From: Desulfobacterales bacterium
GTDB lineage: Bacteria > Desulfobacterota > Desulfobacteria > Desulfobacterales > UBA2245
Assembly: GCA_040771865.1 (NCBI GenBank)
Contig: JAXGZF010000003.1
Span: 124,001-188,000, forward strand
Direction: 5' to 3'
DNA: 64,000 bases
The position numbers and the translations under genes were made by a program. The notes below the pieces were generated by a model, which saw nothing but the letters and a program-made list of their open reading frames with translations, was not told the origin of the DNA and searched no databases. Below are positions 13,920 through 55,381 of the stretch, in pieces. Each line of letters starts with the position of its first letter. Position 1 is the stretch's first letter.

Positions 13920-13935
13920 TTGTTCATGCAGCGTT

Positions 13936-14454: not shown

Positions 14455-14463
14455 GAGCCCCGG

Positions 14464-14919: not shown

Positions 14920-14998
14920 CCGGCCTCCAATCAATCCATTGAATATTCACTCTCAAATCAACCCCCCCTTCAGGGATTGCCCAGAGTATCATATCCCT

Positions 14999-38897: not shown

Positions 38898-39602
38898 TCA
38901 TGTCAGCTCGAACACGACGGCCAGAACCAGCCGGATGGGCTGATTCTGCGTGAAAATGGTCGTGGGCGGCGCCGGAAAAGGCGATGCTTTTTGAATGGCC
39001 TCAACCGCCGCATCATCGAGGATTTTGTGGCGGGAACTTATTCTGATTTCGATCGATGATACCGTTCCGTCGGGATCGATGGCAAATTCCACCGTGATGC
39101 GCCCCTCTATGTGGCGACTCTGGGCGGAAACCGGATATTTCTTGAATTGTTCGATTTTCAGCCGGACCATCTCGAAATAATCTTCCGCGGTTCCGAAGTC
39201 GCCGCTGGCAAGCGGCTCGGCCTGCCACCGTCCGATTTGAAGACCCGGAAGATTCGAGACCGGATTGTCGGCGGATATGGATTCAACGAGGCTGTCGGGC
39301 ACCGTTTTGTCCGCAGGATCGAGGCGGATCGGTTGAATGGCCGGAGGAGCGATGCGGTTCATTTTGATTTCTTCAACCACTTTCGGACGGATATGTGGAT
39401 TCGGGCGATGCCTCGGCCTTGGAATGTTGCGGACCTCGGGCGCCGATATGTTTCGAATGGCAATCTCGATGCAGCTGACGGCGTTTGAATGATACAGGCC
39501 CGCAATATGCAGAAAAATCACGAGGTGGAGGCAGACCGAGGGGATGATCAGGCCTCTGAGCAGCCAGTTGGGCTTGGTTTTATGATGGGATTCGATCTGC
39601 AT
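38898..39602 (-). CDS. tonB: Energy transducer TonB
   Basis: TM with SxxxH (SVCLH), Pro-rich linker, and YP..AQ...IEG.I.V.F.I.PDG C-terminal domain. Confidence 0.9.
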   Translation of the reverse strand: MQIESHHKTKPNWLLRGLIIPSVCLHLVIFLHIAGLYHSNAVSCIEIAIRNISAPEVRNIPRPRHRPNPHIRPKVVEEIKMNRIAPPAIQPIRLDPADKTVPDSLVESISADNPVSNLPGLQIGRWQAEPLASGDFGTAEDYFEMVRLKIEQFKKYPVSAQSRHIEGRITVEFAIDPDGTVSSIEIRISSRHKILDDAAVEAIQKASPFPAPPTTIFTQNQPIRLVLAVVFELT

Positions 39603-39670: not shown

Positions 39671-41338
39671 TTACCGCTCCACATCGGGCGTACCGTCGAA
39701 ATCGAGATCTTTCGATTGCCTGACCAGCGTTTCGGATTCATCATATTCTTCCCAGAGATCCGGTCGGCCGTCCTTGTTCGTATCTTCTTCCAGTTTGCAG
39801 AGCCGGTTGTTCTCGTAATAAAACCAGATATCCGTTTTCCCGTCTTTATCGGAGTCTTTTTCGGCTTTATAGGCCTGCCCGCTGTTGTCATAATGCCAGG
39901 TCAGGTTCATGCGGCCGGTAAAGCCCTCGTCTTCCCTGCTTTGAATCAGACGTTCCCGGTCGTCGTAGCTCTCTTCCAGATCCATGATTCCGTCGCCGTT
40001 GGAGTCGATCTGTTTCACCACCAGGCGCTGATCGCGGTAAAAAAGCCGATGCTCGGGTTTTCCGTTGAGATTCGAGTCCAGCTCGATGATGGTCGACCAT
40101 TCCGGCTTCTGAAGCCACTGGGTGATCTCGAACCGGCCGTCATAATCCCTGTCTTCAAGGATTTTAAATGGTTTTCCATTTTCGTGGAAAACCTTGAGAT
40201 CGGTTTTCCCGTCATGGTTTTGATCCTTTTCCGTACGGATCATGGCTTCGTTTTCGTCATAAAACTGTTTTGCGTCGAACGCGCCGTCCAGATTCGTATC
40301 GGATTCCATGAGCCGGCGTTTTCCGCTGGTAAAATGTATCCTGACATCCGGGGTTCCGTTCCGGTTCGTATCCCGGGTCTGAAGATGGATCTCGGAATTC
40401 CGGTAAAGGGAGACGGACTCCCGGAATCCGTCCCCGTCTTCGTCCCATTCCACGCGAAGCGGTTTTCCGGATTCAAACGTCCGGATCCGGTCGATATTCC
40501 CGTCGTTACGGGTGTCTTCCCGTATCTCCTGAGGAAGACCGCCCCTGTCGAACCGGACAAAACAGTCCATCTTTCCGTCCAGATTCGTATCCTTTTCCAT
40601 GGCGGCGGACTTTCCGCTCGTAAATCGGGTGACGATGTCAAAGCGCCCGCTTCCGGTCGAATCCTTTTTCTGCTCGGTTATGACGCCCTTGCTGTAGATC
40701 CGGATCGTTTCCATGCGGCCGTCCTTGTCCAGATCGTGACGGCTTTCGGCGGGAAGTCCGCCGGCATCGTAGTGAATGATTTTTTCCGGCTTTCCGTTCC
40801 CGTCGTCATCGACCTCGCACTGCTCCGGCTTTCCGTTCCGGTAGGTCTGGCGAACATTGGGAATCCCGTTTCCATCCGAGTCGCGGGTGTAAAGCACGGT
40901 TTTCCCGTTTTCCAGGTGATAGACGGAATCCAGGCGTCCGTCGCCGGTGGAATCTTTTTCAATGCGCCGGGGCTGCTCGTTTGAATCAAACAGGATGATC
41001 CGGTCAATTTTTCCCGACTCCGCATAATGCTCGTGGCGGGAACGTTTCTGGTCTTTGAATTCGTCGCGGCTTTGGATCTGTCCGTTTGCACGGGTCTTTT
41101 CAATGCGGGTCAGAACGCCGCGTTCGTAATGCTGAAACTGGTCCATGATCCGGTCATGATCGCTGTCCAGCTCCAGTCGAATCAGGTTTCCCGAGGCGTC
41201 GACATGGGCGATCTGATCGATATGCCCGTCATGATTCAGGTCTTTTTCGATGCGCCGCTCCGCACTCACAGCTGCGGGAAGCATCGGAACAATAAGCAGG
41301 GCAAAGGCAATGCCCCAGAATGACAGACCGGACTTCAT
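39671..41338 (-). CDS. Exported repeat protein with ~22 tandem ~23-aa units carrying Dx[DN]x[DN]G loops
   Basis: ATG 41338 overlaps the DUF364 stop (ATGA). Signal peptide MKSGLSFWGIAFALLIVPMLPAAVSA. Repeats include DLNHDGHID, DTNLDGKMD, DQNHDGKTD, DSDKDGKTD and DLDFDGTPD. Confidence 0.85.
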   Translation of the reverse strand: MKSGLSFWGIAFALLIVPMLPAAVSAERRIEKDLNHDGHIDQIAHVDASGNLIRLELDSDHDRIMDQFQHYERGVLTRIEKTRANGQIQSRDEFKDQKRSRHEHYAESGKIDRIILFDSNEQPRRIEKDSTGDGRLDSVYHLENGKTVLYTRDSDGNGIPNVRQTYRNGKPEQCEVDDDGNGKPEKIIHYDAGGLPAESRHDLDKDGRMETIRIYSKGVITEQKKDSTGSGRFDIVTRFTSGKSAAMEKDTNLDGKMDCFVRFDRGGLPQEIREDTRNDGNIDRIRTFESGKPLRVEWDEDGDGFRESVSLYRNSEIHLQTRDTNRNGTPDVRIHFTSGKRRLMESDTNLDGAFDAKQFYDENEAMIRTEKDQNHDGKTDLKVFHENGKPFKILEDRDYDGRFEITQWLQKPEWSTIIELDSNLNGKPEHRLFYRDQRLVVKQIDSNGDGIMDLEESYDDRERLIQSREDEGFTGRMNLTWHYDNSGQAYKAEKDSDKDGKTDIWFYYENNRLCKLEEDTNKDGRPDLWEEYDESETLVRQSKDLDFDGTPDVER

Positions 41339-42084
41339 GGGAATAAAGTTTTTCCTCCGCCCCAGAGAACATGGGTTACGCCTTGAACCATTCGAAATGA
41401 ACAGCCCGAGGCGATGCATATTTGGGCCGTCGGTTTATCGCTGACGATGCTTCCCGCGAGTGCACAAAAACCCATGCGAAACAGGACCCGCGCCATCGGA
41501 GTGCTGGGGCCGACCATAATTTTTACGGCATTTGAAGATATGTGTGAAAGAATTTCCCCCAGCGTTCCGTTGGCCAGCGTGGTAGCGGTGATGGCCACGA
41601 GATCGGACTGAGGCAGCACGTCCGGCGACTGGCCGGCGTCGATGTCTCCGGGCCGGGGGTATTTTTCGAGCACCCGGAATTGTGCAAACTGGTCTCCCAT
41701 CTGCTCAACAAAGGGAAAATGTCCGATCACGGCGACATTTTTTCCTTTTCCGTATTCGAGAATCAGATCCGAAGCATTGCGGTCGATCAATTCGGCGGCG
41801 GGCGGATCAGGCAGCAGCGAATTGACGGCCGCCAGCCCCAGAGAGGCACGAACCGGATCCGGACTCAGCAGAAAACGGGCCATTTCCTTGGCTGATTCGG
41901 GCAGGCTTCTTTCAGGGAAATCATCGACCGAAAGCGGATGTTTTCCGATCGCCCATGTGGCGATTCCCATCTTGGCACTTTCAACGGCGACGATATGGCT
42001 GCCCATGATTAGGTTTGTAACCGGATGATCCGGAATCGGATCGAGTTCATCCAGTATGGCGTTCAAGATGTCCTGGTGTTTCAT
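41335..42084 (-). CDS. DUF364 / Rossmann-like putative heavy-metal chelation protein
   Basis: SLGLAAVNSL, KNVAVIGHFPF, VAITATTLANGT and MVGPSTP motifs. Confidence 0.85.
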   Translation of the reverse strand: MKHQDILNAILDELDPIPDHPVTNLIMGSHIVAVESAKMGIATWAIGKHPLSVDDFPERSLPESAKEMARFLLSPDPVRASLGLAAVNSLLPDPPAAELIDRNASDLILEYGKGKNVAVIGHFPFVEQMGDQFAQFRVLEKYPRPGDIDAGQSPDVLPQSDLVAITATTLANGTLGEILSHISSNAVKIMVGPSTPMARVLFRMGFCALAGSIVSDKPTAQICIASGCSFRMVQGVTHVLWGGGKTLFP

Positions 42085-42100
42085 GATGTTTCTCCAGAAT

Positions 42101-42667
42101 TCAAACACGCGGTATCTTCTGGCAGGTTTCCAGTATTAAATTCAAAAGCCTGTCCGATGCATTCGGTTCATCCGCCCGGACCTGGGGCGGTCGGTCGAGA
42201 TTCCAGATTCTGCAGACATCATTCACCAGTCCGGTTCGAACCACCCATATGTGGATCGCATCTTTCAATTGAAGCAGCGGCGTCAGAAAAGGCGCCCATC
42301 CCATTCCGGCGATTTCCAGGCGACCGACCTCATCTACGACAATAATTTCAGCCCCGGCGCAGGATTCAACGGACAGGGCGCGCCGGCCGGCTTTAATGCC
42401 GGATGAAAAAAACTCGAACGGAACTGTATTCCGGCCGTCGTTTATGACGCGACGGGCCAGCGGAACGCTTTTCCCGTATTTGAGATCGATCAGAATAAAT
42501 CCGCTTCGAATGTTGCTTTCCCAAAGCCCCCTTGCCAGAATGCCTGCGAGTTTCAGCTTTCGCTGTTTCAGAACCGGAATCAGCCCCTCGATAAAGGAGG
42601 ACTTTCCGCCTTGCGTATTTCCCGTGACAAGGATGATTCGGGGGCCTGAATCTTCGAAATGCATCAC
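42101..42667 (-). CDS. P-loop NTPase (NTPase_1 / DUF2478-like)
   Basis: ILVTGNTQGGKS Walker A and IIVVDEVGRLE..G.GW Walker B. Confidence 0.78.
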   Translation of the reverse strand: MMHFEDSGPRIILVTGNTQGGKSSFIEGLIPVLKQRKLKLAGILARGLWESNIRSGFILIDLKYGKSVPLARRVINDGRNTVPFEFFSSGIKAGRRALSVESCAGAEIIVVDEVGRLEIAGMGWAPFLTPLLQLKDAIHIWVVRTGLVNDVCRIWNLDRPPQVRADEPNASDRLLNLILETCQKIPRV

Positions 42668-43470
42668 GGCAGCGACTCCCGGTCCTGATCCTGCGGTACG
42701 ATGTCGGCCGGCAGGAATATCTGTACCGCGTCCGAGAGGCCGATCTTCTGCGTTTTGGAATCATACAGCTCGCTGACGTTGAAACTGGTCATGACCTCCT
42801 CGGTTTTTCCCTGAGCCACAATGCGTCCGTTTTTCAGCATGACCACCTGGTCGGAAAACAGCAGGGCCAGGTTGGGGTCGTGCATGGTCGCGATAATTCG
42901 GGAGCCCCTGTCCCTGCAAAGACGCTTCATCCGGTCCAGCATGCGGTACCGGTGATTGAAATCAAGATGATTGGTCGGTTCATCCATTAGCACGGTGGCA
43001 GAACTCTGAAGCAGGGCTCTGGCCAGAAGGGCGATCTGCCGTTCTCCTCCGGAGATCTGATTGTAATTCCGTTCGGCCAGAAAACCGGCGTTGAGGGTTT
43101 GCAGTGCGTCCAGGGCCATGCGGTAGTCTTCGGGACCCGGGCCGGCCATCATTTTCAGAAACGGGGTCCGTCCCATGACGACGAAATCGATGACGCTGAA
43201 CGGAAAAATATCCGTATGCTCCTGCGGCACCATGCTGACCTGCCGGGCGATCTGCGCCTGAGAGACGGTTCCCAGATCCATGCCGTCTAAGGAAATGCGC
43301 CCGCGGTACGGTTTCAGAATGCCGTTGAGGCAGTGCAGCAGGGTGGTTTTTCCGGAGCCGTTCCGCCCGAGAATGGCGCAGAAGGTTCCTGTTTTGACTT
43401 CAAAGCTGATGTCTTCCAGAACACGGCGGCCATTGTAGCTGAAAGACACGGATCGGCACAAGAGCGTCAT
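42664..43470 (-). CDS. FecE/FepC-type ABC transporter ATPase
   Basis: GRNGSGKT, ISGGERQ, MDEPTNHLD and MHDPNLA. True start at ATG 43470 overlaps the permease stop. Confidence 0.92.
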   Translation of the reverse strand: MTLLCRSVSFSYNGRRVLEDISFEVKTGTFCAILGRNGSGKTTLLHCLNGILKPYRGRISLDGMDLGTVSQAQIARQVSMVPQEHTDIFPFSVIDFVVMGRTPFLKMMAGPGPEDYRMALDALQTLNAGFLAERNYNQISGGERQIALLARALLQSSATVLMDEPTNHLDFNHRYRMLDRMKRLCRDRGSRIIATMHDPNLALLFSDQVVMLKNGRIVAQGKTEEVMTSFNVSELYDSKTQKIGLSDAVQIFLPADIVPQDQDRESLP

Positions 43471-44525
43471 ATCCATCCACTCCTGCGGTTTTTGTACAGC
43501 AGATAGACAAACAGCGGCGCTCCGGCCAGGGCTGTAATGATGCTGACCGGAAGTTCCGCGGACGTGATCGAACGGGCGAGCATGTCTGCCGCCAGAAGAA
43601 AAATGCCGCCGATCAGCATGGTGATCGGAATCATTCTCGAATGATTCGGCCCGACCACGGTTCGGGCGATATGCGGAATCACCAGTCCGATCCAGCATAC
43701 CTGTCCGCAGGTGGAAACGGTGACCGCCACCATCAGCGAACTGATGGAGATGAAAATGATTCGATACAGGGTCGGATTCATGCCCAGAGACCGGGCCTGA
43801 AGGTCTCCCAGAGAGAGCACGTTCAGCCGGTACCGAAGCGCATGAACCAGAATCAGCCCGATGCCGATGGTCGGCATGATAAGGTACAGGTCGTTCCATT
43901 CCACCCGGCTCAGGCTTCCCATGATCCAGAACACGATGGCCGGCAGTGCGCTGTAAGGATCCGCCAGGTATTTGAGAATCATGAGCAGTGCGTTGAACAC
44001 CGATGTGGCCACTAGGCCGGCCAGGATCAGCACGAGAATGGGTCTGACGGCGACCATTCTGGCGATGCCGACGGCCAGGAATACGGCCGCCAGTCCGAAA
44101 ACAAATGAGAGTATTCGGACCAGCAGAAAGGAGTTTCCGGGAAGAATCAGGCCCAGGGCCGCGCCGAATGTGCAGCCCGCCGATACTCCCAGAATGTCCG
44201 GAGACACCAGCGGGTTTCGAAACAGGCCCTGATAGACCGCGCCGGAAACCGACAGTCCCATGCCGACAAATATCGCCAGCAGTCCTCTCGGAAAACGGAT
44301 CAGGGTAAACACCTGGGCCTTGGAAAGAAGTTCTTCGGGAACCGGGCTCCCGAACAGGGACGAGCCGACAATCGTCATCGCTTCGCTCAATCGGATATCC
44401 AGGCGTCCGACCATTAGTGAAAGCAGAAACAGTCCCGCCAGCAGAAAGACCAGCAGAACGGTCAAATACCGCGTGTTGTGAAAAAAGCCCGCAGCGGGTT
44501 TTGAGTCGGAGACCGGTTGTGTCAT
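43467..44525 (-). CDS. FecCD/BtuC-family ABC permease
   Basis: IRFPR, QGLFRNPLVSPDILGVSAG, WIMGSL and WIGLVIPH motifs. Confidence 0.94.
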   Translation of the reverse strand: MTQPVSDSKPAAGFFHNTRYLTVLLVFLLAGLFLLSLMVGRLDIRLSEAMTIVGSSLFGSPVPEELLSKAQVFTLIRFPRGLLAIFVGMGLSVSGAVYQGLFRNPLVSPDILGVSAGCTFGAALGLILPGNSFLLVRILSFVFGLAAVFLAVGIARMVAVRPILVLILAGLVATSVFNALLMILKYLADPYSALPAIVFWIMGSLSRVEWNDLYLIMPTIGIGLILVHALRYRLNVLSLGDLQARSLGMNPTLYRIIFISISSLMVAVTVSTCGQVCWIGLVIPHIARTVVGPNHSRMIPITMLIGGIFLLAADMLARSITSAELPVSIITALAGAPLFVYLLYKNRRSGWI

Positions 44526-44584: not shown

Positions 44585-45694
44585 TTACGGGCCCAGGACG
44601 TCGTCCAGCCGGCCCCCCATTTCCGTAAAGGATCTGGAAAACAGAATTTCATGAAAACCATCGATTTCTTTGATTAAATCAATATCATGAAACCGGTCCG
44701 GATACAGTCTCTTTCCGGCCCAGAGCACGCCCAGCACGGACAGGGGGGATGGAAAGTCCCACGGCGCAAGACTGGATGGAATGCAGAAAAATTGGCCGAA
44801 TTTGACGGCCTCGACTTCGGCCAGTTCGGGTTTGCCGAGATATTTTCCGGCGGACGATCGAATCTCCCGGCAGGCAAACACCGCATCCGGGTTCCATTGA
44901 ACGAGCTGCTCCGGGGAAATGGACTTGAAAAAACCGGTCAGGTCATGGGCCGCGTTGATTCCGCCGGCTTGGGAGATCATTTCATCCTGAAGCATATCGC
45001 CGGGGGCGGTCGTGAAAAACCCCTCCGGCCCAGCGTAATACACCGTTTTGCGCTCTTGGGCTTTCAGACCTGCGGTCCGGGTATGGACCATGTCCATGAC
45101 ATGATCGATCGCCTGAATCACCGTATCCGCCCGTTCAGGGCAGCCCGCCGCGCGGGCGATGATGCGAAGCGTTTCCTCGATGCTGGCCAGGCTTTCCGGC
45201 AGAATCACGATGGCCGGAATTCCGGACCGGACCAGCCGGTCTGCCGTCAGAATTCCGTCTTTCTGGGCGTAAAGGATCACCAGATCGGGCTTGAGAGATA
45301 TTACGGTCTCCATGTTCAGGCCCGTGGAGCGGTTGCCGATTTTCGGAAGCAAGCTCATGGCCGGATATACCGCCGTGTTGATCCGGACCCGGGGCGAGAA
45401 ACTGTCCACCGCGACCAGGCGGTCGGCCAGCCCCAGAGACAAAATGCTGAGCGTGGCCGGCTTGAAGGTCGTGATGATGTGCTCGGCCCTGCCGGAAAGG
45501 GCGACGTTCCGGCCGGCCATATCCACGATCGTGTATTGGGTTTGGGCGAGTGCGCTTACGGTAATGCAGCAGGCGATCAAGCCGGAACTCAGAATGCCGA
45601 GCAGCCATGTCCTTAAGTGGCATCCGGCCGATGACTGGATGGTTTTTTGAATCATCATGTTCGAATCAAACCCTTGTTTTTTTAATAGGTCCAT
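44585..45694 (-). CDS. Periplasmic binding protein, helical-backbone (BtuF/FhuD/TroA class III); start likely a downstream Met
   Basis: IVDMAGRNV, NMETVISLKPDLV, EQLVQWNPD and WDFPSP motifs. Confidence 0.9.
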   Translation of the reverse strand: MDLLKKQGFDSNMMIQKTIQSSAGCHLRTWLLGILSSGLIACCITVSALAQTQYTIVDMAGRNVALSGRAEHIITTFKPATLSILSLGLADRLVAVDSFSPRVRINTAVYPAMSLLPKIGNRSTGLNMETVISLKPDLVILYAQKDGILTADRLVRSGIPAIVILPESLASIEETLRIIARAAGCPERADTVIQAIDHVMDMVHTRTAGLKAQERKTVYYAGPEGFFTTAPGDMLQDEMISQAGGINAAHDLTGFFKSISPEQLVQWNPDAVFACREIRSSAGKYLGKPELAEVEAVKFGQFFCIPSSLAPWDFPSPLSVLGVLWAGKRLYPDRFHDIDLIKEIDGFHEILFSRSFTEMGGRLDDVLGP

Positions 45695-45790: not shown

Positions 45791-47773
45791 TCAGAATGTG
45801 GTGCGCACCAGCGCAAAAAAGGTGCTGCCTTCTCGAGGATATCCGTTTTTATACATGTAATCCTCGTCAAAAAGGTTCTTCACCCCGGCCTCAATGGTCA
45901 TGAATTTTGCGGGCTTCACCATGATCTTGGCGTCCACGGTCCAGAACCCGTCGATGGAATCAAATTCGCCGTCGCTGTTTTCCTGATACCGTTCGGAGTT
46001 CCACTGGACTCTGGCAAAGGCCGAGAGCCAGTCGTTGAATTTGTAATGATCGCTTATGTAAAGCTGGTGTTCGGAAACCTCTTCCAGTTTGTCGCTGATC
46101 CGGTCATCCGACCGGTTTTCGGCGTCCAGGTAGGTGTAATGGCATTCAATCTCGTTCTTCGGAATAATGCCAGTCTTCAGAATCAGCTCGAATCCCTGGT
46201 ACCGGGCCTCTCCGATATTCTGATACTGGTCGGTACCGTCCGAAAGTTCTTTTTGCACGATCTTGTCTTCGACATCCGAGAGGAACAGATTCGCCTGAAA
46301 GAGAGAATCCGCCGGCAGGGGTTTTTCGATGCCGACCTCGTAGTTGGTCGCTTTTTCGTTGGCCAGATCGGGATTGGGCGTATTGCCGCCTATTTCACTC
46401 GAATACAGCTCATGCATGGTCGGGAAACGGGTTTTCTGGCCCACGGATGCATGCAGCACGGTATCCTCGAACACGTTCAGGTACAACCCGGCCTGGGGAT
46501 TGTAGGCGTCCTCATCGTCCCGTACAGGTTCGCCGTTGGCGTATTCCGGACACTGAAGGTCGTAGCTGATGCCCAGCACCAGAGAAAGCCGGTCGTTGAA
46601 CTTGATGTCGTCTTCCAGACCAAGGGAGTACATTTCGGTCTCGTATTTTTCCCAATCGTCGCCACGATCGCCCTGAGCCTCATGAACGTCCTTCTTGTAA
46701 TGAAAAGCGGCGCTGATGGTCTGATTGGCAAGATGCCGGGACCGCAGCGTCAAAGATCCGCCGTCGCTGTGATCGTCATAGATGCTGTGGAAAGCATATC
46801 GTTTTGTCTGAGAGCTGTAGGTGCCGTCATCATAAGAATCCAGCACATTGTAGTATTCGTCGTGAAAGGCCCTGATTTTGGCGGAAAATTGTTCCGTGAA
46901 GTCGATGTTGCCGATCAGGTAATAGGTATCTTTGTCCCAGTCGGTAAACCGCCAGTACCGGGTTTTGTCGGCCAGCGACGCCGACGGAGGCAGCCCCTTT
47001 TCCATGGATACGGTGTTGACGCCGATGGCGTATTCCTGATTGTCGGTGGGCGTAAAGCCGATTTTTAACGCTCCGCTTTTCTGCTCCACATCCGAATTGT
47101 CCCGAAGGCCGCCGTCTTCAATGGCGTTCGCATCAAAGTCGTCTGAAAGCCGGAATCCGTCGGAATTCAGATACCCGCCGCTGAGCATGAAATAAAATTT
47201 ATCCAGCCTGGATCCCAGGTTGATATTCGTATGATACGCTTTTTCTTCCGCGTATCCGAATTCCATCTCGCCCTCGATGGCTTTTTGCGGTTTCATGGTA
47301 ACGATGTTGATCACGCCGCCCATGGTGTTGGGACCGTAGAGCGCCGAGCTGATGCCCTTGGTCAGCGTGATTTTCGACAGGCTGGAGGTGGGCAGGTTGC
47401 CGGTGTCCACATAGCCATCATAAGGTATGTAAATGGGAATGCCGTCCAGAAACGTCGGCACATAGCGTTCGTTGAACCCCCGGACGTTGATGTTCTGCTC
47501 ATTCTTGGAACCGACCGACACGGTCACGCCCGGCAGGGATTCGAGCGCGTCTGAAATGTTCTCGGCGTTGATCAGATCGATGCGATCCTGGCTGACGGTT
47601 TCTACCGTCGATACCTGGGTGATGGTTTCTCCCTTTCCCTCCACGACGACCTCGCCGATATCAAACGTTCCGGCTGAATCCGAGACCGTTGCCGTCTCCT
47701 GGGACTGAGCGGTTGCTCCCCAGAAGCATAATAGCGCCAGGGAGAAAATCCATAACAATGCCTTGCGTCTCAT
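45791..47773 (-). CDS. TonB-dependent outer-membrane receptor
   Basis: Signal peptide, TonB box (EVVVEG), plug motifs (LESLPGV, NVRGF, GGVINIVT), NPDL.NE, GVKNLFD and C-terminal Phe. Confidence 0.95.
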   Translation of the reverse strand: MRRKALLWIFSLALLCFWGATAQSQETATVSDSAGTFDIGEVVVEGKGETITQVSTVETVSQDRIDLINAENISDALESLPGVTVSVGSKNEQNINVRGFNERYVPTFLDGIPIYIPYDGYVDTGNLPTSSLSKITLTKGISSALYGPNTMGGVINIVTMKPQKAIEGEMEFGYAEEKAYHTNINLGSRLDKFYFMLSGGYLNSDGFRLSDDFDANAIEDGGLRDNSDVEQKSGALKIGFTPTDNQEYAIGVNTVSMEKGLPPSASLADKTRYWRFTDWDKDTYYLIGNIDFTEQFSAKIRAFHDEYYNVLDSYDDGTYSSQTKRYAFHSIYDDHSDGGSLTLRSRHLANQTISAAFHYKKDVHEAQGDRGDDWEKYETEMYSLGLEDDIKFNDRLSLVLGISYDLQCPEYANGEPVRDDEDAYNPQAGLYLNVFEDTVLHASVGQKTRFPTMHELYSSEIGGNTPNPDLANEKATNYEVGIEKPLPADSLFQANLFLSDVEDKIVQKELSDGTDQYQNIGEARYQGFELILKTGIIPKNEIECHYTYLDAENRSDDRISDKLEEVSEHQLYISDHYKFNDWLSAFARVQWNSERYQENSDGEFDSIDGFWTVDAKIMVKPAKFMTIEAGVKNLFDEDYMYKNGYPREGSTFFALVRTTF

Positions 47774-48615
47774 TTCGTGTTTCCTCCTGATGATGTTGAT
47801 GCGTTTTGTTGATAACCGGGCTGTTTCCAGGTCATGATCAGGTAAACGGCGATGCCGACAATCATGAGTGGAAACAGCGTGAACACAACATTTTTGGCCG
47901 GATTTCTGGATATAAAAAGAATCGTCCCGGCGGTCGACGATTCCGGATCGGTTTTTCCGACTGAAGGGGGCGGAGTGAAATTTTTCAGCGTAAACTGGAT
48001 GCCGTCGAGAACCAGCGGTTTGAGAAAAGACAGGCGGCCTGATTTCAGAAACAGGTCATTTTTGTACAGGGAGACCTGAACACAATTGGATTCAAAGCTG
48101 AATTCGTCCGATGTCATGGCTTTGATGGGTTTTGTCAGAACGGAGAAGTCGTTTACGAAATGGATCGCATTGGCTGTTACCCGGTATCCGTTTTGCAGCT
48201 CGAAGGACTCTCCCTGCCGGAGCCGGACATTTGCATACCGGAATCCGACCATCAGGCTGGCAAAATGGCATAGAATCACCAGTCCGAATACGATATGAAT
48301 GGCCAGCATGAGCATGGCCGGTTGGTTCATGCGTCTGGAGGTCATCTTGAGAAACTTGTTCCAGGAGCAGAAAATCAGATTGATGCCAAGGGCCGCCGCC
48401 ACAGCGCACAACCCAAAGAACCAGAAGCGGATCAGCGGCGATTTACCATGGGAAACTGAGAGCCAGTCCGGCATCAGATAGTTGTTCATCTGCTGAAATA
48501 TTTCGTAATAACCGGTAGTTGTGAGAACAACCGCCCAGGTGAACCAGACACTCAGAATGATCAGAAGCCAGAGGGAGAAATGAAGGGAGGAGAGAAAATC
48601 AATCAGTTTTTTCAC
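47770..48615 (-). CDS. ResB/CcsB-like membrane protein (short, divergent)
   Basis: FLSSL.FS..LL start, WF...NLI.CS, a TM His (AIHIVFGLVILCHF), a periplasmic domain and C-terminal 'SRNP' plus TM. Confidence 0.6.
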   Translation of the reverse strand: MKKLIDFLSSLHFSLWLLIILSVWFTWAVVLTTTGYYEIFQQMNNYLMPDWLSVSHGKSPLIRFWFFGLCAVAAALGINLIFCSWNKFLKMTSRRMNQPAMLMLAIHIVFGLVILCHFASLMVGFRYANVRLRQGESFELQNGYRVTANAIHFVNDFSVLTKPIKAMTSDEFSFESNCVQVSLYKNDLFLKSGRLSFLKPLVLDGIQFTLKNFTPPPSVGKTDPESSTAGTILFISRNPAKNVVFTLFPLMIVGIAVYLIMTWKQPGYQQNASTSSGGNTK

Positions 48616-49352
48616 AGCAGGCTCCGAATCATCGTCATGGTCAGAAGGAAAACCCCGCTCAATCCGCCGAGCAGGGAACGAATTCGGGCTGCATTTTCAT
48701 TTCTGCCGGGAATGTGAAATGCGATCATGAGATACAGCAGCACCAGAGTGGATTGAAAAAAAACATTGCTCCAGTGCCAGAAGTCCCCCCAGCCCTGCTG
48801 GCACCAGATCATTCCGGAATATTCGGAGATGAGAAAGCAAATGGCGCCAAGGATCAGGTAGTTTCTGCCCCGATGATGCCATGCCGGGTCTGAAAAGTGT
48901 TTTCGTCCGGTTTTCCGGTGCTGAAAGAAGTGACAGGATGAAAACAGCATGAGGGCCAGGGAGATTCTTCGAAATGCGTGAAAGAGAATGACCCAGAGGT
49001 GGCGATATTGGTACTCGTTTTGACCATTGCTTTGGGGACAGAACAGGCAAAAAGACAAAAGGATTAAAATAAAAACATATCCCCAGCGTCTGAGTTCCGT
49101 GTCTGAATCGTCATGGGAGGTACCAAATGAAATCAGGATGCCGAGAATGAAAGTTACCAGCAGCATGGATTCGAAATCCGTGAAAACGGGAATGCGGCTG
49201 CCGGCGTAGGTCATCGCTGCCAGGGCCGATGCGGAACATGCGCAGCCCGCCCACAAGGAATATTTTTCCAGCGAAAACCGCCTTGTGTGAAGGCAAAACA
49301 GAGCCGATACGAAACAGATCAGGGTCAAACAGAAAAAAGATACCGGCTGCAT
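48612..49352 (-). CDS. CcsA/ResC-like (WWD-domain, heme-handling superfamily) membrane protein, divergent
   Basis: RIP.....ES, LFH, GMIWCQQGWGDFWHW (WWD-like) and AFH. GAGGA RBS before ATG 49352. Confidence 0.72.
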   Translation of the reverse strand: MQPVSFFCLTLICFVSALFCLHTRRFSLEKYSLWAGCACSASALAAMTYAGSRIPVFTDFESMLLVTFILGILISFGTSHDDSDTELRRWGYVFILILLSFCLFCPQSNGQNEYQYRHLWVILFHAFRRISLALMLFSSCHFFQHRKTGRKHFSDPAWHHRGRNYLILGAICFLISEYSGMIWCQQGWGDFWHWSNVFFQSTLVLLYLMIAFHIPGRNENAARIRSLLGGLSGVFLLTMTMIRSLL

Positions 49353-49494
49353 GTTCGTGTCCTCAAACAGTCTCATCCGAACGATCGGTTTATTCCGGAA
49401 ACCAGCGCCATGGATGCCCTTATGTTCCCAATGAAAGGGCATCGTACCCGGTAGACGGAAAGCGTCCTGACATGAAGTGTTATTAAAAGAAATT

Positions 49495-49523
49495 TTTAAA
49501 GCGTTTATTACTGTTTTTGTCAA
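49495..49523 (-). promoter_or_regulatory. Putative sigma-70 promoter of the ccsA-like/TBDR operon
   Basis: TTGACA (49523-49518) in a very AT-rich intergenic stretch, with a weak -10 (TTTAAA or TAAAAA). Confidence 0.5.
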
Positions 49524-49626
49524 TATATATTTAAATAAATCTAATAAAAACGAATTCTAACTTAAAAGAACAAAAAAGGGGCTTCTTTTTTGAATGAACG
49601 CTGTTTGTTTGGATTTTCGTCTTTTA

Positions 49627-50460
49627 TCAGGCGCTGGATACCTGCACGTTATAACGTTCGTTTGCAGCACAATGCCCGTACCGCCCTTTGACCCCTTCCG
49701 GAACGCAGATATGGCCGCCTCCATCCAGATCCATGACCGTGATGCGGGTGTTGTACAGGTTGTACAGATTGAGTCGATTGACCTTCTGCGAGGCGTCTCC
49801 GTCCGCAATCACTCTTCCGTCTTTCAGCATGACGACGCGGTCTGAAAACCAGAGTGCGTGATCGGGGAAATGAGTGGTTTTGATGAAGGTGTACCCATGA
49901 TGCGCAAGGTCCGTAATCCGGGACAGGAGCCGAATCTGGTTGCCGTAATCCAGGCCGTTGACTGGTTCATCCATGATGAAAATGCCGGCGCCCTGGGCCA
50001 GTGCGCGGGCGATCAGCGTGAGCTGTCGCTCGCCGCCGCTGATCTCAGTGTAGGGCCGGTCCCTGAGGTGAGCGATAGAGAGCCGTTCCAGGGCCTCAAC
50101 GGCCGCCTTTTCGTCGTCGTCGCTAAAACGGAAGAAAAACGGCTTGTGCGGCATTCTCCCCATCAGCACGACGTCCAGGACCCGGTAGCCGAATGAAAGA
50201 CGGTGAAATTGAGGAACGTACGCGATGCGTTTGGACAGCTGTTTCGGGGGAATGTTGCAGACCGGCCGGCCTTCAAACAGCACCCGGCCTTCCTGGGGAC
50301 GAAATAATCCCAGCAGCAGTTTAAGCAGAGTCGTCTTGCCGCTGCCGTTCGGCCCCAGAAGCGAGACGATTTCACCTTGGTGAAAATCGACCGAAATGTC
50401 GTTGAGAACCGGCTGGCGGGAATAGCCGTAGGTAACGTGATCGACTGAAATCAGGCTCAT
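49627..50460 (-). CDS. FecE/FepC-type ABC transporter ATPase
   Basis: GPNGSGKT, ISGGERQ, MDEPVNGLDYGNQ and THFPDHA. Confidence 0.93.
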   Translation of the reverse strand: MSLISVDHVTYGYSRQPVLNDISVDFHQGEIVSLLGPNGSGKTTLLKLLLGLFRPQEGRVLFEGRPVCNIPPKQLSKRIAYVPQFHRLSFGYRVLDVVLMGRMPHKPFFFRFSDDDEKAAVEALERLSIAHLRDRPYTEISGGERQLTLIARALAQGAGIFIMDEPVNGLDYGNQIRLLSRITDLAHHGYTFIKTTHFPDHALWFSDRVVMLKDGRVIADGDASQKVNRLNLYNLYNTRITVMDLDGGGHICVPEGVKGRYGHCAANERYNVQVSSA

Positions 50461-51473
50461 CTGTTCCATCCTTTCCTGGCGTTGCGAAGCACCAGGGCGA
50501 AAAAGGGGATGCCCACCAGAGAGGTTAAGATTCCAATAGGGATCTCCACACTGAACATCAGACGCGCGATATTATCCACTATCAGCAGATAGGCGGCGCC
50601 GATCAATGCGGTTGAGGCCAGTAGAATGCGGTTGTCCGGCCCGACCAGCATGCGGGCGATATGCGGAATCAACAGGCCCACCCAGCCGATGATGCCGCCC
50701 ATGACTACTGTCAGCGCGCTGATAACGGTGGCCAGAAAGATAAATAAAAGACGGAGAAAACGGACATTGACGCCCAACGAACGGGCTTCTTCATCGCCCA
50801 TGCTCATCACATTCAAATATCCGGAAAGCAGCAGCAGAATCAGAATGCCGGCGGAAATCGGGCCGAATACGGCCAGAACCGTTGCCTTGTCAATGGCGGA
50901 AAGTCCGCCCATGAGCCAGTAGGTTATGGCCGGAAGCTGTTCGAACGGATCGGCCAGGTATTTGACCACCGAGAGCAGAGAAGTAAACAGCGCGCCGCTG
51001 ATGATGCCGCCCAGTATCAGCATCAGGAGCTGATTCCCGCGATTGACGGCAGACATTGCCAGAGCCGCCAGCACGGCGATCAGGCCGAATGAAAGGGCGC
51101 TCAACTGAACCACGAGCCAGTTGTTGGCGACGACCATGCCCAGAGCGGCGCCAAAGGAAGCGCCGGCAAGAACGCCCAGCAGACCTGGAGAAACCAGGGG
51201 ATTCATGAACATGGACTGAAAAACCGCGCCGGATACCGAAAGGCCTGCGCCGATCAGAATGGCCGCCGAAATGCGCGGCAGGCGGATGTCAAGCAGGATG
51301 TTTTTGAGGAGCTGGCAGCGGTGCTCGTTCATGACCGGCTGACCCGAAACCTGGAGGGAAACAAATCGGACCAGGTCGCCGGCGCCGACCGGATAACGTC
51401 CGACAGACAAGGAAACCAGCGCCGTCAGGCATAGTATGACAAACAGGACCGGAATCATCATGGATCGTTTCAT
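50457..51473 (-). CDS. FecCD/BtuC-family ABC permease
   Basis: IRLPR, NPLVSPGLLGV, WLMGGL and GWVGLLIPH. ATGA overlap with the upstream gene. Confidence 0.94.
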   Translation of the reverse strand: MKRSMMIPVLFVILCLTALVSLSVGRYPVGAGDLVRFVSLQVSGQPVMNEHRCQLLKNILLDIRLPRISAAILIGAGLSVSGAVFQSMFMNPLVSPGLLGVLAGASFGAALGMVVANNWLVVQLSALSFGLIAVLAALAMSAVNRGNQLLMLILGGIISGALFTSLLSVVKYLADPFEQLPAITYWLMGGLSAIDKATVLAVFGPISAGILILLLLSGYLNVMSMGDEEARSLGVNVRFLRLLFIFLATVISALTVVMGGIIGWVGLLIPHIARMLVGPDNRILLASTALIGAAYLLIVDNIARLMFSVEIPIGILTSLVGIPFFALVLRNARKGWNR

Positions 51474-52504
51474 GGCTGCAGAAGCTCTCGGGTTGCCGCC
51501 TCGTCCAGAGAGATATTCAAAAAGAGCTTGTAGAAATGGCGAGTCTCGGCTGCAAGATCGAGCGGATAAACCGAAGGATAGAGTTTGCATGTGAGCCAAT
51601 GGAGGCCAAGCAGGCGCATGAAGGACGGGGGACGGTCAAACCAGTTCAACGGTTCCTTTGGAATTCTGTACACGCGGCCGTCCTGAACGGCGCGGATATT
51701 TTTCCATCTGGAATCGGATGCGACCCGGTCGAGAAACGATGCGTCATGAGATACGATCGCCCGGGGGTCGTATTGCAGGAGCTGTTCCATGGATATCTTC
51801 TGCATGCCGTAACCTCTTTCATTGCTGCAGCGATGCACGTTTTTCCCGCCGCTCAGGTGAATCAGCTCGGCATGCAGCGACGCATGGCATTCGGTGCTCA
51901 GGCCGTCGGCGCTTTCGGCATAATAGACCGTGATCCGGTTTTCTTCCGGAATGGCCGCGCGTATCCGGTCTGTTTCATCAAGAGTTTTCTGAGCGTACCG
52001 GCTGAGAATGTCCGCTCTTTCATGTCGCTTGAGCAGTTGCCCGAGGAACTGAAAAACGGCCGGATAATCGTACAGATGGTCCACGGTAACATGCACCACC
52101 GGAATCCGCAGCGGCTTCAGGGTTTGTTCGATTTTTTCGCCGACGGCGGTTTCCTGCCATGTGCTGTCGACGATGATATCGGGTCCGACCTGCAGCAATG
52201 TTTCCAGGTTGGGGGTCCGTCCCTGGCCGAACCAGCCGCCGATTACCGGCAGTTTTTGCAGGCGCGGGTCCAGCATCCGACGCTCCGGCGGATTGAGGGG
52301 AACATTAAGTCCAGACAGCAGCCCGGGATCCATCGCATACAACAGACAGGTGGATGACGGCGAGGTGCAGTACACTTTTCGAATCTCGTCCGGAACGGTC
52401 ACCCTTTGGCCGGCCATGTCGATGATCTCCCCGGCTGCAGCATTTGGACCGAAGGGAGTGATGATGAAAAGCGCAACTAAACAGAAAACGCGGATTTTAA
52501 GCAT
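51470..52504 (-). CDS. Periplasmic binding protein, helical-backbone class III (start uncertain)
   Basis: IIDMAGQRV, GGWFGQG..PNLE, SMEQLLQYDP and WFDRPP motifs. Confidence 0.9.
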   Translation of the reverse strand: MLKIRVFCLVALFIITPFGPNAAAGEIIDMAGQRVTVPDEIRKVYCTSPSSTCLLYAMDPGLLSGLNVPLNPPERRMLDPRLQKLPVIGGWFGQGRTPNLETLLQVGPDIIVDSTWQETAVGEKIEQTLKPLRIPVVHVTVDHLYDYPAVFQFLGQLLKRHERADILSRYAQKTLDETDRIRAAIPEENRITVYYAESADGLSTECHASLHAELIHLSGGKNVHRCSNERGYGMQKISMEQLLQYDPRAIVSHDASFLDRVASDSRWKNIRAVQDGRVYRIPKEPLNWFDRPPSFMRLLGLHWLTCKLYPSVYPLDLAAETRHFYKLFLNISLDEAATRELLQP

Positions 52505-52547
52505 TAAGTCTTTCTGTCTTCCGGTCATGCCCCCAATTCCGGCATAT

Positions 52548-53393
52548 TCATGTTTCAGCAAAATCTTCATCCGGAACGTCCCACCAGATGACGGCCCAGC
52601 GCACCGGCGGCACGTCCGGCAATACCCAGCTGCCGTTTTGCCGGACCAGATGATCCTGGAAAAAAATCCTCAGCCGCTTTTCCTCATCAGGCGTCATATC
52701 GTCCACCATCCACCGGCTTTTATTCAGCGCGTCCTCGTGGTCCGCGTAGGTCCGGTTCACCGGATGGAAGGTAAAGGAAAGATTGGCGTAGATTCCCATC
52801 TGATGCAGGAGATTCAGGATGTAGATATAACCGGGGCTGGGGACATAATCCCGGCCGGCGGCGTTGATGATGCGCCGGACGGCGGGACCGTCGCCCACGA
52901 CGGCGGAAACATAGACGCGTTTGCGGGCAAACCGGTTGAGTTTGATGATGGCGCTCTTTAAATCCTCGATGTTCACGGAGCGGGATGCGATTACCACATC
53001 GTGCGAGTCGATTCCAATACGCTCCCAGTCGTCTTCCCAGGCCGCCAGAACGGGTTGAATGTTTTTGATGGTTTTCGTCGCGCATTCCTGTCTGAGTATG
53101 GAAAGCATGCTTTCCGAAAAATCCATGGCGGTGATGGAAGCGACGCGTTCCGCCAGCGGAATGGCGATCGTGCCGGACCCGCAGCCCACGTCCAGAATGC
53201 GCCAGGCCGGATCGGGGTCCAGTATCCTGATGAACTGATGCGGATAATCGCTTTTATGCGCCTGATGATCCGAAAAGTCGCGGGCGCGTCTGTTCCAGTA
53301 CACCGCCCCCTTGGGTGCGCGGTTCAGACGTTTCCGGCGTTGCGCGGCCCGCCAGGCAAGGTTCCAGTCGATTTGATCAATATCTGTTTTCAT
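52548..53393 (-). CDS. Class I SAM-dependent methyltransferase
   Basis: YWNRRA..F, ILDVGCGSG, HDVVIASRS and YIYILNLLHQMGI. This type is commonly found beside FecCD transporters. Confidence 0.9.
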   Translation of the reverse strand: MKTDIDQIDWNLAWRAAQRRKRLNRAPKGAVYWNRRARDFSDHQAHKSDYPHQFIRILDPDPAWRILDVGCGSGTIAIPLAERVASITAMDFSESMLSILRQECATKTIKNIQPVLAAWEDDWERIGIDSHDVVIASRSVNIEDLKSAIIKLNRFARKRVYVSAVVGDGPAVRRIINAAGRDYVPSPGYIYILNLLHQMGIYANLSFTFHPVNRTYADHEDALNKSRWMVDDMTPDEEKRLRIFFQDHLVRQNGSWVLPDVPPVRWAVIWWDVPDEDFAET

Positions 53394-54028: not shown

Positions 54029-55309
54029 CTAGAGTTTCAGTTTTTCCGCCAGATATTCCATGTAGCGGGATTTTACCTGTTTGCCGGCCGTAATCCTTTT
54101 GACGGGGGGCAGACGCAGAATAACACCTGTGACCGCGGCAAGGGCGCGATGATTCCACATCACGCGGTTGTCAAAAATCATGTGCTGAAGAGTTCCGCGT
54201 TCAATGGCCATCATAACGGTTTTATGCACCGAATTCACCGGCGTGATGACCCGTTTTCCGCGTGCACGAAGCGAGATGGCTCCCTGCGGGCAGGCCCGCG
54301 CACACACGCCGCACCCCAGACAGATCTCTTCGTTGACGCGCGCTTTTTTCTTTTTCGGCTCGTGCGGATCATTCGCAGATACCAGACCAACGGCCTCCAC
54401 CGGGCAGGCGGAAACGCACCTGCCGCAGCCGCTGCACCGTGAGGCATCCACAAACGGAATGAAATTTGAGGTATGCACCGGATGCAGCATTCCAAATTTT
54501 CTGGCGGCAATCATGGCTTCGCAGCAGCATCCGCAGCAGTTGCAGATAAAGTTCACGCTCTTTCGAACATTTTCTCCGAACTGAACCAGTCCATGCCCAT
54601 AGGCCTGCTGCAACAGATCGAGCCCCTCGCCGATATCGACTTCCCGTGCGAACCCATGCTTTATCAATGACCGGGCCGAGGTGTTGAATGTCATGCAGAT
54701 ATCCATCGGCGCATCGCAGTTGCGGCCCAGATGCCTCATTTTGTGACGGCAGTAACACATGCTGATTCCCCGATGAGTTGCCGTGCGGATCACCTCGCTG
54801 GCACGCTCGTAATCGAGCACATGCACGCCGTTTTCGGAAGAAAGCATGGACTCCTGTACGAAAATCCGGCCGATCTGGGTTTCTCCATTGACGAACAGGC
54901 TGAGAATAAACTCCTCTTCAACATTGATGTACTGGTAGAAAAGTTCCGCCAGGAGATGCTGATCGATGTCGCCGCGTGTCCTCATCATGGAAAATTCAAA
55001 AAAACCGGCCATGGGCGGAGGCAGAACATAGGTGGTGCGGCCTTCGCATTCGATATCCACCAGCAGGGCGCGACCGGCCAGATTGTCCAGAATCGCCCAT
55101 GCCTGCGCCGGTTTCATTTTCCATGCTTTGGCTGCCTGTTCTGCGGTGAACGGCTTGATGGGAAGCAGAGCGATCAGCTCCGCTTCCCGTTCGCTGAAAA
55201 GAATTTTAAGAATCCTGTAGAGGGTCTCCGATGGCGGCGCGCCCTGCGGAAAACGATTCAGGCGGTCGACCAGCTCCGAGTATCCGGATCGATGTGAAAT
55301 GTGCGACAT
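54029..55309 (-). CDS. 4Fe-4S dicluster domain-containing protein
   Basis: CYCRH, ICNCCGCCC, CSGCGRCVSACP and CLGCGVCARACP motifs. Confidence 0.9.
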   Translation of the reverse strand: MSHISHRSGYSELVDRLNRFPQGAPPSETLYRILKILFSEREAELIALLPIKPFTAEQAAKAWKMKPAQAWAILDNLAGRALLVDIECEGRTTYVLPPPMAGFFEFSMMRTRGDIDQHLLAELFYQYINVEEEFILSLFVNGETQIGRIFVQESMLSSENGVHVLDYERASEVIRTATHRGISMCYCRHKMRHLGRNCDAPMDICMTFNTSARSLIKHGFAREVDIGEGLDLLQQAYGHGLVQFGENVRKSVNFICNCCGCCCEAMIAARKFGMLHPVHTSNFIPFVDASRCSGCGRCVSACPVEAVGLVSANDPHEPKKKKARVNEEICLGCGVCARACPQGAISLRARGKRVITPVNSVHKTVMMAIERGTLQHMIFDNRVMWNHRALAAVTGVILRLPPVKRITAGKQVKSRYMEYLAEKLKL

Positions 55310-55381
55310 GACAAGTTATATGCTGTTGAATCCAAACACGCTCAAACGGTTCTGGTTTTCAGGAGGCTTCAAACCGGGCCA

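Follow-up and report, generated by a model that had tools for sequence, protein, structure and literature searches.

The 64,000-nucleotide stretch of DNA analyzed here (the window; positions 124,001 to 188,000 of the forward strand of contig JAXGZF010000003.1, GenBank assembly GCA_040771865.1, from a Desulfobacterales bacterium) carries two overlapping genes for a CcsA-like and a short ResB-like membrane protein, which adjoin the gene for a TonB-dependent receptor. We show that this pair encodes a two-subunit inner-membrane complex that is under selection and is predicted to have the CcsBA/CcmF fold, that it is not the cytochrome c synthase of its genome, and that it forms a constant component of a conserved module for TonB-dependent uptake. 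As judged from sequence comparisons, the pair belongs to a distinct branch of the superfamily that shed synthase-specific residues, kept a predicted membrane heme site, and became fixed beside TonB-dependent receptors in several divergent clades. As to its function, we tentatively favor a CcmF-like heme-b membrane module that would serve a periplasmic step of TonB-dependent uptake, a role that we consider possible, a little short of probable.

We initially compared the two proteins with known families. Sequence evidence alone for their kinship to CcsA and ResB was borderline. The CcsA-like protein scored 26.0 bits against Pfam PF01578, below the cut-off of 29.9, and only 17 against TIGR03144 (CcsB; cut-off, 187.6) and 18 against TIGR01191 (CcmC; cut-off, 186). 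The ResB-like protein had no Pfam or NCBIfam match at an E value of ≤0.01, PF05140 included. Searches of the PDB sequences with the family profiles retrieved no chain for the CcsA-like protein and chance rows only (E values of 0.36 and 0.68) for the ResB-like one. The comparison of profiles and folds settled the matter. Using hhalign, the CcsA-like protein was aligned to the genome's own CcsA over 223 columns (probability, 76%; E value, 2.3e-5) and the ResB-like protein to the genome's own ResB (probability, 88%; E value, 3.1e-6). The Atlas clusters nearest the latter contain short "ResB-like" proteins, with PF05140 found on 40-91% of their members. AF2 models were obtained with pLDDT values of 85 (CcsA-like) and 81 (ResB-like). 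The CcsA-like model was superimposed on CcmF (6zmq) with a Z score of 19.8 and an rmsd of 3.2 over 235 of its 246 residues; lower rows included an unrelated structure (Z score, 12.6), CcsBA (12.5), and CcmC (10.1). In Foldseek, CcsBA was the top match for both models. For the CcsA-like model, 7s9z and 7s9y ranked as the first two (TMq of 0.68 for 7s9y), with weak E values of 0.036 and 0.11, and for the ResB-like model the CcsBA matches had E values of 2.2e-5 and 1.6e-4, followed by CcmF at 1.9e-4. A reading of the same DNA made from its letters alone (the sequence-only reading) had assigned the two proteins to CcsA and ResB and suggested this Foldseek comparison; both profile-profile and fold comparison match them to the fold of heme-handling proteins, a resemblance that is more than chance.

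A model of the complex, comprising both chains and two hemes, scored 0.85, compared to 0.03 for the best of three controls. In calibration, the mark applied was reached by 116 of 157 solved complexes and by 2 of 215 mismatched pairs, a calibration that holds only roughly for a model built with custom alignments and two hemes. The runs agreed in at least 82% of contacts, the partner pLDDT was at least 80, and the predicted interface consisted of residues 185-196 and 213-216 of the CcsA-like chain and residues 117 and 120-121 of the ResB-like chain. The model supports the binding of the ResB-like to the CcsA-like chain. Since a solved CcsBA complex exists, the pass shows likeness to it and may reflect memory.

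The CcsA-like gene lies in an open reading frame, 48612-49523(-), that encodes MIWCQQGWGDFWHWSNVFFQS followed by ...MIAFHIPG, with VILFHAFRR upstream of the motif. We placed its start at 49352, which is M58 of this frame and yields a protein of 246 amino acids (aa). This start is preceded by GAGGA 7 nucleotides (nt) on its 5' side, is in keeping with 54 relatives in the database that are about 246 aa long, and agrees with one database record, also of 246 aa, that is 100% identical to the window protein. The CcsA-like and ResB-like genes overlap by 4 nt, stop over start, and so do the ResB-like gene and the receptor gene. The ResB-like protein is cut down in its beta-domain, which is predicted to be periplasmic and has about 115 aa, compared to roughly 250 aa for its counterpart in the genome's canonical ResB.

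We examined which residues are kept and which are lost among 51 CcsA-like sequences, namely, that of the window, those of 36 loci found by pattern search, and those of 14 loci from a phylum sample; 41 were classed as close and 10 as distant (25-35% identity). The corresponding ResB-like set held 49 sequences, one fragment of <200 aa having been left out. Ten positions are invariant in all 51 CcsA-like sequences: P55, F124, R163, L174, G180, W183, G189, W192, W194, and H213. H213 aligns to the membrane histidine (TM-His2, in LLH) that follows the WWD loop in the genome's own CcsA. In contrast, the signature W.WDP[KRV]E after the loop is present in none of the 51. As the sequence-only reading had noted, the WWD-like motif of the window runs into SNVF in place of DPKE (WHWSNVF), and the flanking LFH and AFH are both found in the frame. 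Its statement that the flanking histidines are retained holds for the window, where H125 occupies the P-His1 position and H213 that of the membrane histidine after the loop, and does not hold for the family, in which the P-His1 position ("LFH") is histidine in 38 of 41 close and in 0 of 10 distant relatives. P-His2, the C-terminal periplasmic histidine, is gone, as the CcsA-like protein stops right after its last helix; a histidine occurs within the last 15 residues in 2 of the 41 close and 8 of the 10 distant sequences. Taken by clade, these counts leave at most one periplasmic histidine in each. In the ResB-like family, H107 is present in 49/49 and H117 in 45/46 sequences. As had been reported for this 281-aa partner, it thus has membrane histidines, both in predicted helix 3, whereas the canonical ResB membrane histidine (TM-His1, in the YHSWWF helix) aligns to arginine or lysine. 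When the heme-ligand histidines of CcsBA were mapped, as had been proposed, only three histidine positions were kept in the window pair; P-His2 was absent, and the canonical ResB membrane histidine was replaced by Arg/Lys. The residues lost (DPKE, the C-terminal histidine, and P-His1 in the distant relatives) are parts that a synthase needs at its outer heme site. Among the cysteines, C184 of the CcsA-like protein is present in 39 of 41 close and 5 of 10 distant sequences, and C70 and C83 of the ResB-like protein are mostly conserved.

The host assembly (2.98 Mb, 98.3% complete) has three PF01578 matches. One is a canonical CcsA of 288 aa, with WGSYWSWDPKE and all three CcsA histidines, which adjoins a 461-aa ResB on contig C7; the second is a HemX-like CcsA with canonical WDPKE on contig C6 (L002:1318-2139), located between a sirC-like (precorrin-2 dehydrogenase-like) gene and hemA; and the third is the window protein itself. 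The canonical ccs system expected elsewhere in the genome is thus present on C7, and the pair is neither the only maturation system of this genome nor its cytochrome c synthase. No CcmE was found over the cut-off in the genome (best score, 19 bits versus 24.6); CcmH was not searched for.

A search of 1.84 billion representative sequences with the CcsA-like profile retrieved 208 clusters at an E value of ≤1e-3, 119 at ≤1e-10, and 43 at ≤1e-30, nearly all with proteins of about 245 aa. Because only 208 clusters were found, canonical CcsA proteins were not drawn in by the family profile. When the phylum was sampled evenly, a match at an E value of ≤1e-20 was obtained in 21 of 401 genomes, that of the window among them. 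The named records of the family all come from Desulfobacterales or Desulfatiglandales-type metagenome-assembled genomes, and a homolog search that included the distant clade yielded no protein named for a cultured organism. Near-identical DNA (at least 86% of sampled words) was detected in four metagenome runs, one of which may be the source of the window; the runs belong to two studies on anaerobic digesters and wastewater. The pair represents a small uncharacterized family residing in outer-membrane uptake gene clusters of sulfate-reducing bacteria. In openly accessible full text, we found no description of this family, nor of the exported CxxCH/YedY-like/CbiF-like protein described below.

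The neighborhood of the pair is conserved. Among the 36 pattern-found loci, the ResB-like gene follows the CcsA-like gene in 35, the one miss being a contig end. A receptor gene follows the pair in 26 of the 28 loci with room for it (L035 and L039 lack one), and 8 further loci end too early. A further inner-membrane transporter, of the APC permease or FecCD ABC type, is present in every variant of the module. Selection was estimated by comparing the window with locus L006; at a dS of about 0.4, the CcsA-like and ResB-like genes had dN/dS ratios of 0.28 and 0.19, respectively, compared to 0.14 for the receptor, which served as the baseline.

In 25 loci (21 pattern-found, 4 from the phylum sample), the module includes a gene for a protein that has a Sec signal without a twin arginine and two weak Oxidored_molyb-like domains (PF00174, YedY type). 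Between the two N-terminal domains there is a conserved CxxCH, within the motif ..P[HR][HKR][DG]CxxCH.PE.., in 23 of the 25; the misses are L038, which ends with its contig, and L024. Longer forms have an additional C-terminal TP_methylase domain nearest to precorrin-4 and precorrin-2 methyltransferases (CbiF/CbiL-like; E value, 2e-17). This domain lies behind a Sec signal, where S-adenosylmethionine (SAM) is not expected. The protein constitutes a conserved unnamed family, whose Atlas clusters are named by domains only. The long form is usually accompanied by an APC-family permease and the short form by FecCD ABC genes. Only in the window and, among the pattern-found loci, in L006 and L030 does a set of binding protein, FecCD permease, and ATPase stand in place of the CxxCH protein. 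In the window, none of the 19 operon proteins between 37.7 and 57.0 kb has a CxxCH, the CxxCH strings between 30 and 64 kb lying only in frames other than called genes, and in the window's own genome the CxxCH protein was not found with either a full-length or an N-terminal query. The observation that no exported CxxCH protein is encoded nearby was thus correct. The description of the pair as having no cytochrome substrate applies to the window and two relatives, and fails for the 25 related loci with the exported protein, 23 of them with CxxCH. Since purifying selection acts on the pair in the window and L006, both of which lack the CxxCH protein, the pair has some function that is independent of that protein.

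The CxxCH protein is more widespread than the pair in the phylum sample. Its N-terminal part was matched in about 32 of the 401 genomes, 11 of which also have the pair. Sixteen CxxCH loci were taken from genomes without a match to the pair; 6 of them have a still more divergent short CcsA-like gene adjacent, 4 of these 6 with a ResB-like match, and a receptor is present in 10 of the 16. Conversely, 10 of the 14 loci fetched from the phylum sample have no homolog of the CxxCH protein, and in 7 of these 10 the 6 kb around the pair contain no CxxCH frame. In L035 and L039, the two loci without a receptor, and in a further clade (L066 and L070), the gene right behind the pair is that for the CxxCH protein. 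The distant clade is varied. The pair is found with a receptor, binding protein, FecCD permease, ATPase, and NTPase in L042 and L045; with a receptor alone in L044 and L050; with nifEN-nifB upstream and modABC downstream on the same strand in L043 (7633-14446), L048, and L051; and with a TupA-like gene and a TP_methylase in L049. In the sub-clade L046/L047 it lies beside multiheme cytochromes, proteins with three and eight CxxCH motifs (L046:7027-7713, L047:5109-8015, and L047:9965-10693), and in this sub-clade it may be a true dedicated cytochrome synthase.

According to the explanation that we favor, the pair would work like CcmF and not like a synthase. A b-type heme would be held in the membrane between H213 and a histidine of ResB-like helix 3 (H107 or H117); the binding of heme is inferred from homology. 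Electrons from the quinol pool would pass via this heme to a partner docked on the Trp-rich periplasmic loop. For most relatives, this partner would be the exported protein with CxxCH that the module encodes. In the window, where a binding-protein-dependent ABC importer, an NTPase, and a DUF364 protein would replace it, the electrons would be accepted by the imported ligand or by the protein that binds it. The pair would thereby serve the reduction or release of an imported metal complex, and neither general maturation nor transport across the inner membrane. A CcmF-like conduit would explain why the membrane histidine and the Trp-rich loop are universal, why the outer histidines are dispensable, and why the pair is found beside a c-heme protein, a binding-protein ABC system, or modABC.

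Several observations weigh against this explanation. To our knowledge, all characterized members of the CcsA/CcmF/CcmC superfamily act in cytochrome c maturation, and a recurrent CxxCH neighbor is the pattern expected of a dedicated lyase. The need for reductive iron release in strictly anoxic, sulfidic habitats is not obvious, and the modABC context of one clade comes without an evident need for a reductase. Moreover, the pairing of H213 with H107 or H117 is taken only from the interface list, in which H107 does not appear. Finally, in one metatranscriptome library, 7 contigs fell on the 19.4-kb operon and none on the pair; they matched ExbB, the first FecCD gene, the receptor (352 nt, no differences), and the Fe-S gene. 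Such libraries may contain DNA, and these contigs show neither expression nor silence of the pair.

The strongest challenge comes from the textbook reading of a System II paralogue beside an exported CxxCH protein, in which this protein would have the pair as its own dedicated System II-type heme lyase or delivery machine; in the window, the pair would be an orphan serving another periplasmic heme protein. We hold this to be on the unlikely side, and it deserves real weight. It would account for the homologous Sec-signal protein in the 25 modules with its CxxCH in 23, for the CxxCH genes directly after the pair in L035, L039, L066, and L070, for the divergent CcsA-like gene at 6 of the 16 CxxCH loci lacking a close pair, and for the multiheme cytochromes of L046/L047; moreover, an axial ligand, which the pair is missing, could come from the His-rich stretch that precedes CxxCH. 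In CcsBA, however, both periplasmic histidines are needed, whereas this family has at most one, and DPKE is absent from 51/51. A lyase reading leaves unexplained this loss of outer-site residues, the purifying selection on the pair where the locus has no CxxCH protein and two queries found none in the genome, and the occurrence of either partner without the other. The latter comprises the 10 of 14 phylum-sample loci without a homolog (7 of 10 without a nearby CxxCH frame) and about 21 sampled genomes with the CxxCH protein and no close pair, 10 of 16 fetched loci showing none. In addition, the motif is an ordinary CxxCH, which the canonical system could handle, and its heme binding is putative. 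Alternatively, the pair might be what is left of a duplicated ccsBA that is decaying and no longer functions; it is shortened, falls below the Pfam cut-off, and lacks motifs. This reading is barely credible and already contradicted by the selection and conservation data: the frames are intact, dN/dS is 0.19-0.28, the motifs are invariant in 51 relatives, and synteny is conserved across clades.

Two further readings keep the fold and change its cargo. The heme-channel mechanism of CcsBA, run in reverse or sideways, could make the pair an inner-membrane channel or chaperone for a tetrapyrrole, taking heme or corrinoid from the receptor. This is quite unlikely in our estimate. The Trp-rich loop is invariant, the nearest solved relative of the receptor is BtuB, and the C-terminal domain of the CxxCH protein is CbiF/CbiL-like; CcsBA is called a heme channel in its PDB titles. 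In L012, L013, and L022, cobT/cobS/cbiB operons with cobalamin riboswitches stand 7 kb upstream; L019 and L021 have cob genes as well. The window's own genome, with two TP_methylase matches and no CbiD, CobS being present, cannot make the corrin ring. However, the cob neighborhood is parted from the pair by a divergent gene and confined to one lineage. The genome has six cobalamin riboswitches, all outside the window, located before cobQ, a BtuF-CbiZ fusion with a receptor, cobT, and a receptor with ExbBD; two of the six precede other receptors. Neither the window nor the region directly before the pair in 15 loci yielded one, and corrinoid uptake as the function of the window is weakened accordingly. 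An import channel is also the role least needed. The sequence-only reading had inferred a repurposed pair, acting as a tetrapyrrole channel or chaperone or as a heme-b reductase that releases metal from an imported chelate. On our analysis the pair is not the maturation system of its genome and the reductase role probably fits best; the channel role loses likelihood, since no variant of the module is without an inner-membrane transporter of its own. In the other reading, which dispenses with heme altogether, the cargo of the membrane His/Cys and the Trp-rich loop would be a metal or oxyanion on the periplasmic side, either Mo/W or a thiophilic metal. It draws on the Mo/W genes in 20/67 loci, the nifEN-nifB-pair-modABC clade, the Methanococcus DUF364 relative in a modABC operon cofit with nifH (described below), and the mostly conserved C184, C70, and C83. 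We regard it as very unlikely: the universal residues are exactly those of the CcmF/CcsBA heme sites (Trp-rich loop and membrane His), the cysteines are not universal (C184 in 5/10 distant sequences), and the window contains no Mo/W transport gene, the genome's ModA-type genes being on contigs C4 and C10.

What ligand a CcmF-like module would help to import can be approached from the receptor and the neighboring genes. The receptor passes no NCBIfam cut-off; its nearest solved relatives are BtuB (E value, 4e-18; full length in some rows), followed by YncD/PqqU, Fiu, CirA, and heme receptors. Genes related to Mo/W occur within the analyzed stretch of 20 of 67 loci, which were chosen in three different ways and include many short contigs. 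They encode ModA and WtpA, both over the cut-off, TupA-like proteins, and HTH + PF12727 (TupR-like) regulators. PF12727 is the extra domain of a Desulfovibrio MoeA, and a tungstate/molybdate regulator family is cited in the paper on it (PMC10102598). The one characterized DUF364 member is reported to cyclize methylated SAM to methyl-azetidine-carboxylate (PMC12930334), and another belongs to a modABC operon of Methanococcus maripaludis that is reported to be cofit with nifH (bioRxiv 10.1101/2024.03.05.583561). In L040 (4254-6834), the module is immediately preceded by two nicotianamine-synthase-like genes and a methyltransferase, which hint at a SAM-derived metal chelator. The only Mo-related gene of the window is moeA, 6 kb upstream of the methyltransferase. 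Together, the neighborhoods hint at Mo/W as the substrate. A fuller, unlikely version would make the pair, the receptor, and the exported CxxCH/YedY-like protein an undescribed TonB-dependent system by which sulfate reducers scavenge Mo/W or another sulfide-locked metal. The CcsBA-derived heme complex would feed electrons via the periplasmic c-heme protein to convert or release the metal before uptake by ModABC, TupABC, the APC permease, or FecCD, and the carrier would derive from SAM-based chelator chemistry (DUF364, nicotianamine-synthase-like genes, and methyltransferase).

The genes of the window operon, together with examples of the exported CxxCH protein, are listed in Table 1. The 582-aa repeat protein of the window is 46% identical to a protein preceding ExbB-ExbD-TonB in L035. 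The pair had been described as leading the receptor operon. The receptor gene does overlap the pair; however, a promoter scan of the gap before the pair revealed no consensus promoter, and co-transcription with the upstream genes is possible. This gap to the upstream ABC ATPase gene is 104 nt long (275 nt from the ATG at 49352), AT-rich, and contains TTGACA. A riboswitch in the leader of roughly 170 nt was considered and found no support: Rfam scans gave no family at the cut-off in the window, and a permissive scan of 49250-49700 gave a chance snoRNA row only. A Fur box consensus, with up to 3 mismatches, had 0 matches in the window, and an alignment of the upstream regions of 11 loci revealed no shared element. 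In L036, L037, and L040, a palindrome, ATATTCTAC.ATAGAATAT, follows directly after TTGACA some 250-300 nt upstream of the CcsA-like gene (alignment columns 165-195). It could be an operator, and it is absent from the window and L006.

Table 1. Features of the window operon and examples of the exported CxxCH protein in relatives
Feature	Position	Strand	Remarks
CcsA-like membrane protein, 246 aa	48612..49352	(-)	8 predicted helices; Trp-rich loop WCQQGWGDFWHW
Short ResB-like partner, 281 aa	47770..48615	(-)	4 helices + beta-domain
TonB-dependent receptor, 660 aa	45791..47773	(-)	Pfam Plug + barrel
Periplasmic binding protein (Peripla_BP_2)	44585..45694	(-)	BtuF and IsdE-type matches weak, below cut-offs
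FecCD-type ABC permease	43467..44525	(-)
ABC ATPase	42664..43470	(-)	start approximate, set by likeness to L006
NTPase_1 (PF03266) P-loop protein	42101..42667	(-)	also beside pair in L006, L042, L045
DUF4213 + DUF364 protein	41335..42108	(-)
Exported repeat protein, 582 aa	39671..41419	(-)	DxDxDG-like repeats; no Pfam match
TonB	38898-39602	(-)
ExbB	38206-38841	(-)
ExbD	37719-38126	(-)
ABC ATPase	49627-50469	(-)	upstream of pair
FecCD permease	50457-51599	(-)	upstream of pair
Second binding protein	51470-52570	(-)	upstream of pair
Class I methyltransferase	52548-53393	(-)	upstream of pair
Exported CxxCH/YedY-like protein, examples	L016:11568-13325; L012:11565-13334; L039:9478-11238; L035:4984-6003

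Other features of the window and its genome were recorded along the way. Further upstream, 54029-57041(-) encodes a SufC-like ATPase, a SufBD-like protein, and a 426-aa protein with two 4Fe-4S motifs. A DDE transposase (DUF4372 + DDE_Tnp_1), 60751-61920(+), adjoins a second TonB-dependent receptor, 62114-63973(-), whose plug domain is only partly matched in the called frame. A type II secretion cluster (GspE, secretin, GspC, L, K, and G-like) occupies 4126-14934(-). On contig C7 (L062:5261-7285) and in L063, a riboswitch precedes a 674-aa fusion of a BtuF-like protein with a CbiZ amidohydrolase, followed by a receptor.

If the favored explanation is true, a heme-handling fold would have been put to a new use, and a step that is missing from the picture of how strict anaerobes take up nutrients, in the periplasm or at the inner membrane, would have been identified. 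The analysis also brings into view a conserved exported protein that joins two YedY-like domains, a CxxCH, and a corrin-methyltransferase-like domain. The recurrent molybdate/tungstate neighbors provide a testable link to Mo/W acquisition by sulfate reducers under sulfide, with relevance to nitrogen fixation, formate metabolism, and the control of corrosion.

The closest published hint comes from Bacteroides thetaiotaomicron, where the strongly iron-induced, cytochrome-free iron-starvation locus BT2473-BT2482 contains a pair of CcsA-annotated genes (PMC10434189). Its likeness to the window lies in the extra "cytochrome c biogenesis CcsA" genes of an uptake-type locus, here a strongly iron-regulated one, without cytochromes; unlike the window, it belongs to another phylum, has a porin, a thiol oxidoreductase, and a peptidase M75 as neighbors, and is likened here by annotation only. 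CcsBA of Helicobacter hepaticus (7S9Y/7S9Z) resembles the pair in having ResB/CcsB and CcsA parts, the same fold, a Trp-rich periplasmic loop, and a membrane histidine right after the loop, and the window pair likewise has an adjacent ResB-like partner that is predicted to bind. In contrast to CcsBA, the window pair totals 527 aa, compared to about 750 aa for the genome's own ResB and CcsA; lacks DPKE and the C-terminal periplasmic histidine; has Arg/Lys for the ResB membrane histidine; has a ResB-like periplasmic domain cut to about 115 aa; and lies in an uptake operon, with the canonical copy elsewhere.

Extra System II paralogues beside a particular exported heme-motif protein, as in this family, have precedents in Wolinella succinogenes. 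NrfI and CcsA1 are dedicated CcsBA-type lyases for NrfA and MccA, respectively; they have the full motif set and serve the unusual motifs CX2CK and CX15CH. In this family, the neighbor has a plain CxxCH, part of the motif set is missing, and such a neighbor is absent from the window. FoxB, FpvG, and MsrQ (with MsrP) are inner-membrane heme-b reductases that partner TonB-dependent receptors or periplasmic enzymes. They share with the pair the placement of a membrane heme protein beside a receptor or a YedY-type protein and the proposed delivery of electrons to the periplasm; their folds are unrelated, and the role of the pair is a proposal from sequence and models. CcmF of Thermus thermophilus (6ZMQ) is the best structural match of the CcsA-like chain, and the ResB-like model matches it too. 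Unlike CcmF, the window version is split into two genes, has one periplasmic histidine, occurs in a genome in which CcmE was not found over the cut-off, and has no sequence-level match to any PDB chain. The residues kept in the window pair are those that we take to hold the heme b of CcmF.

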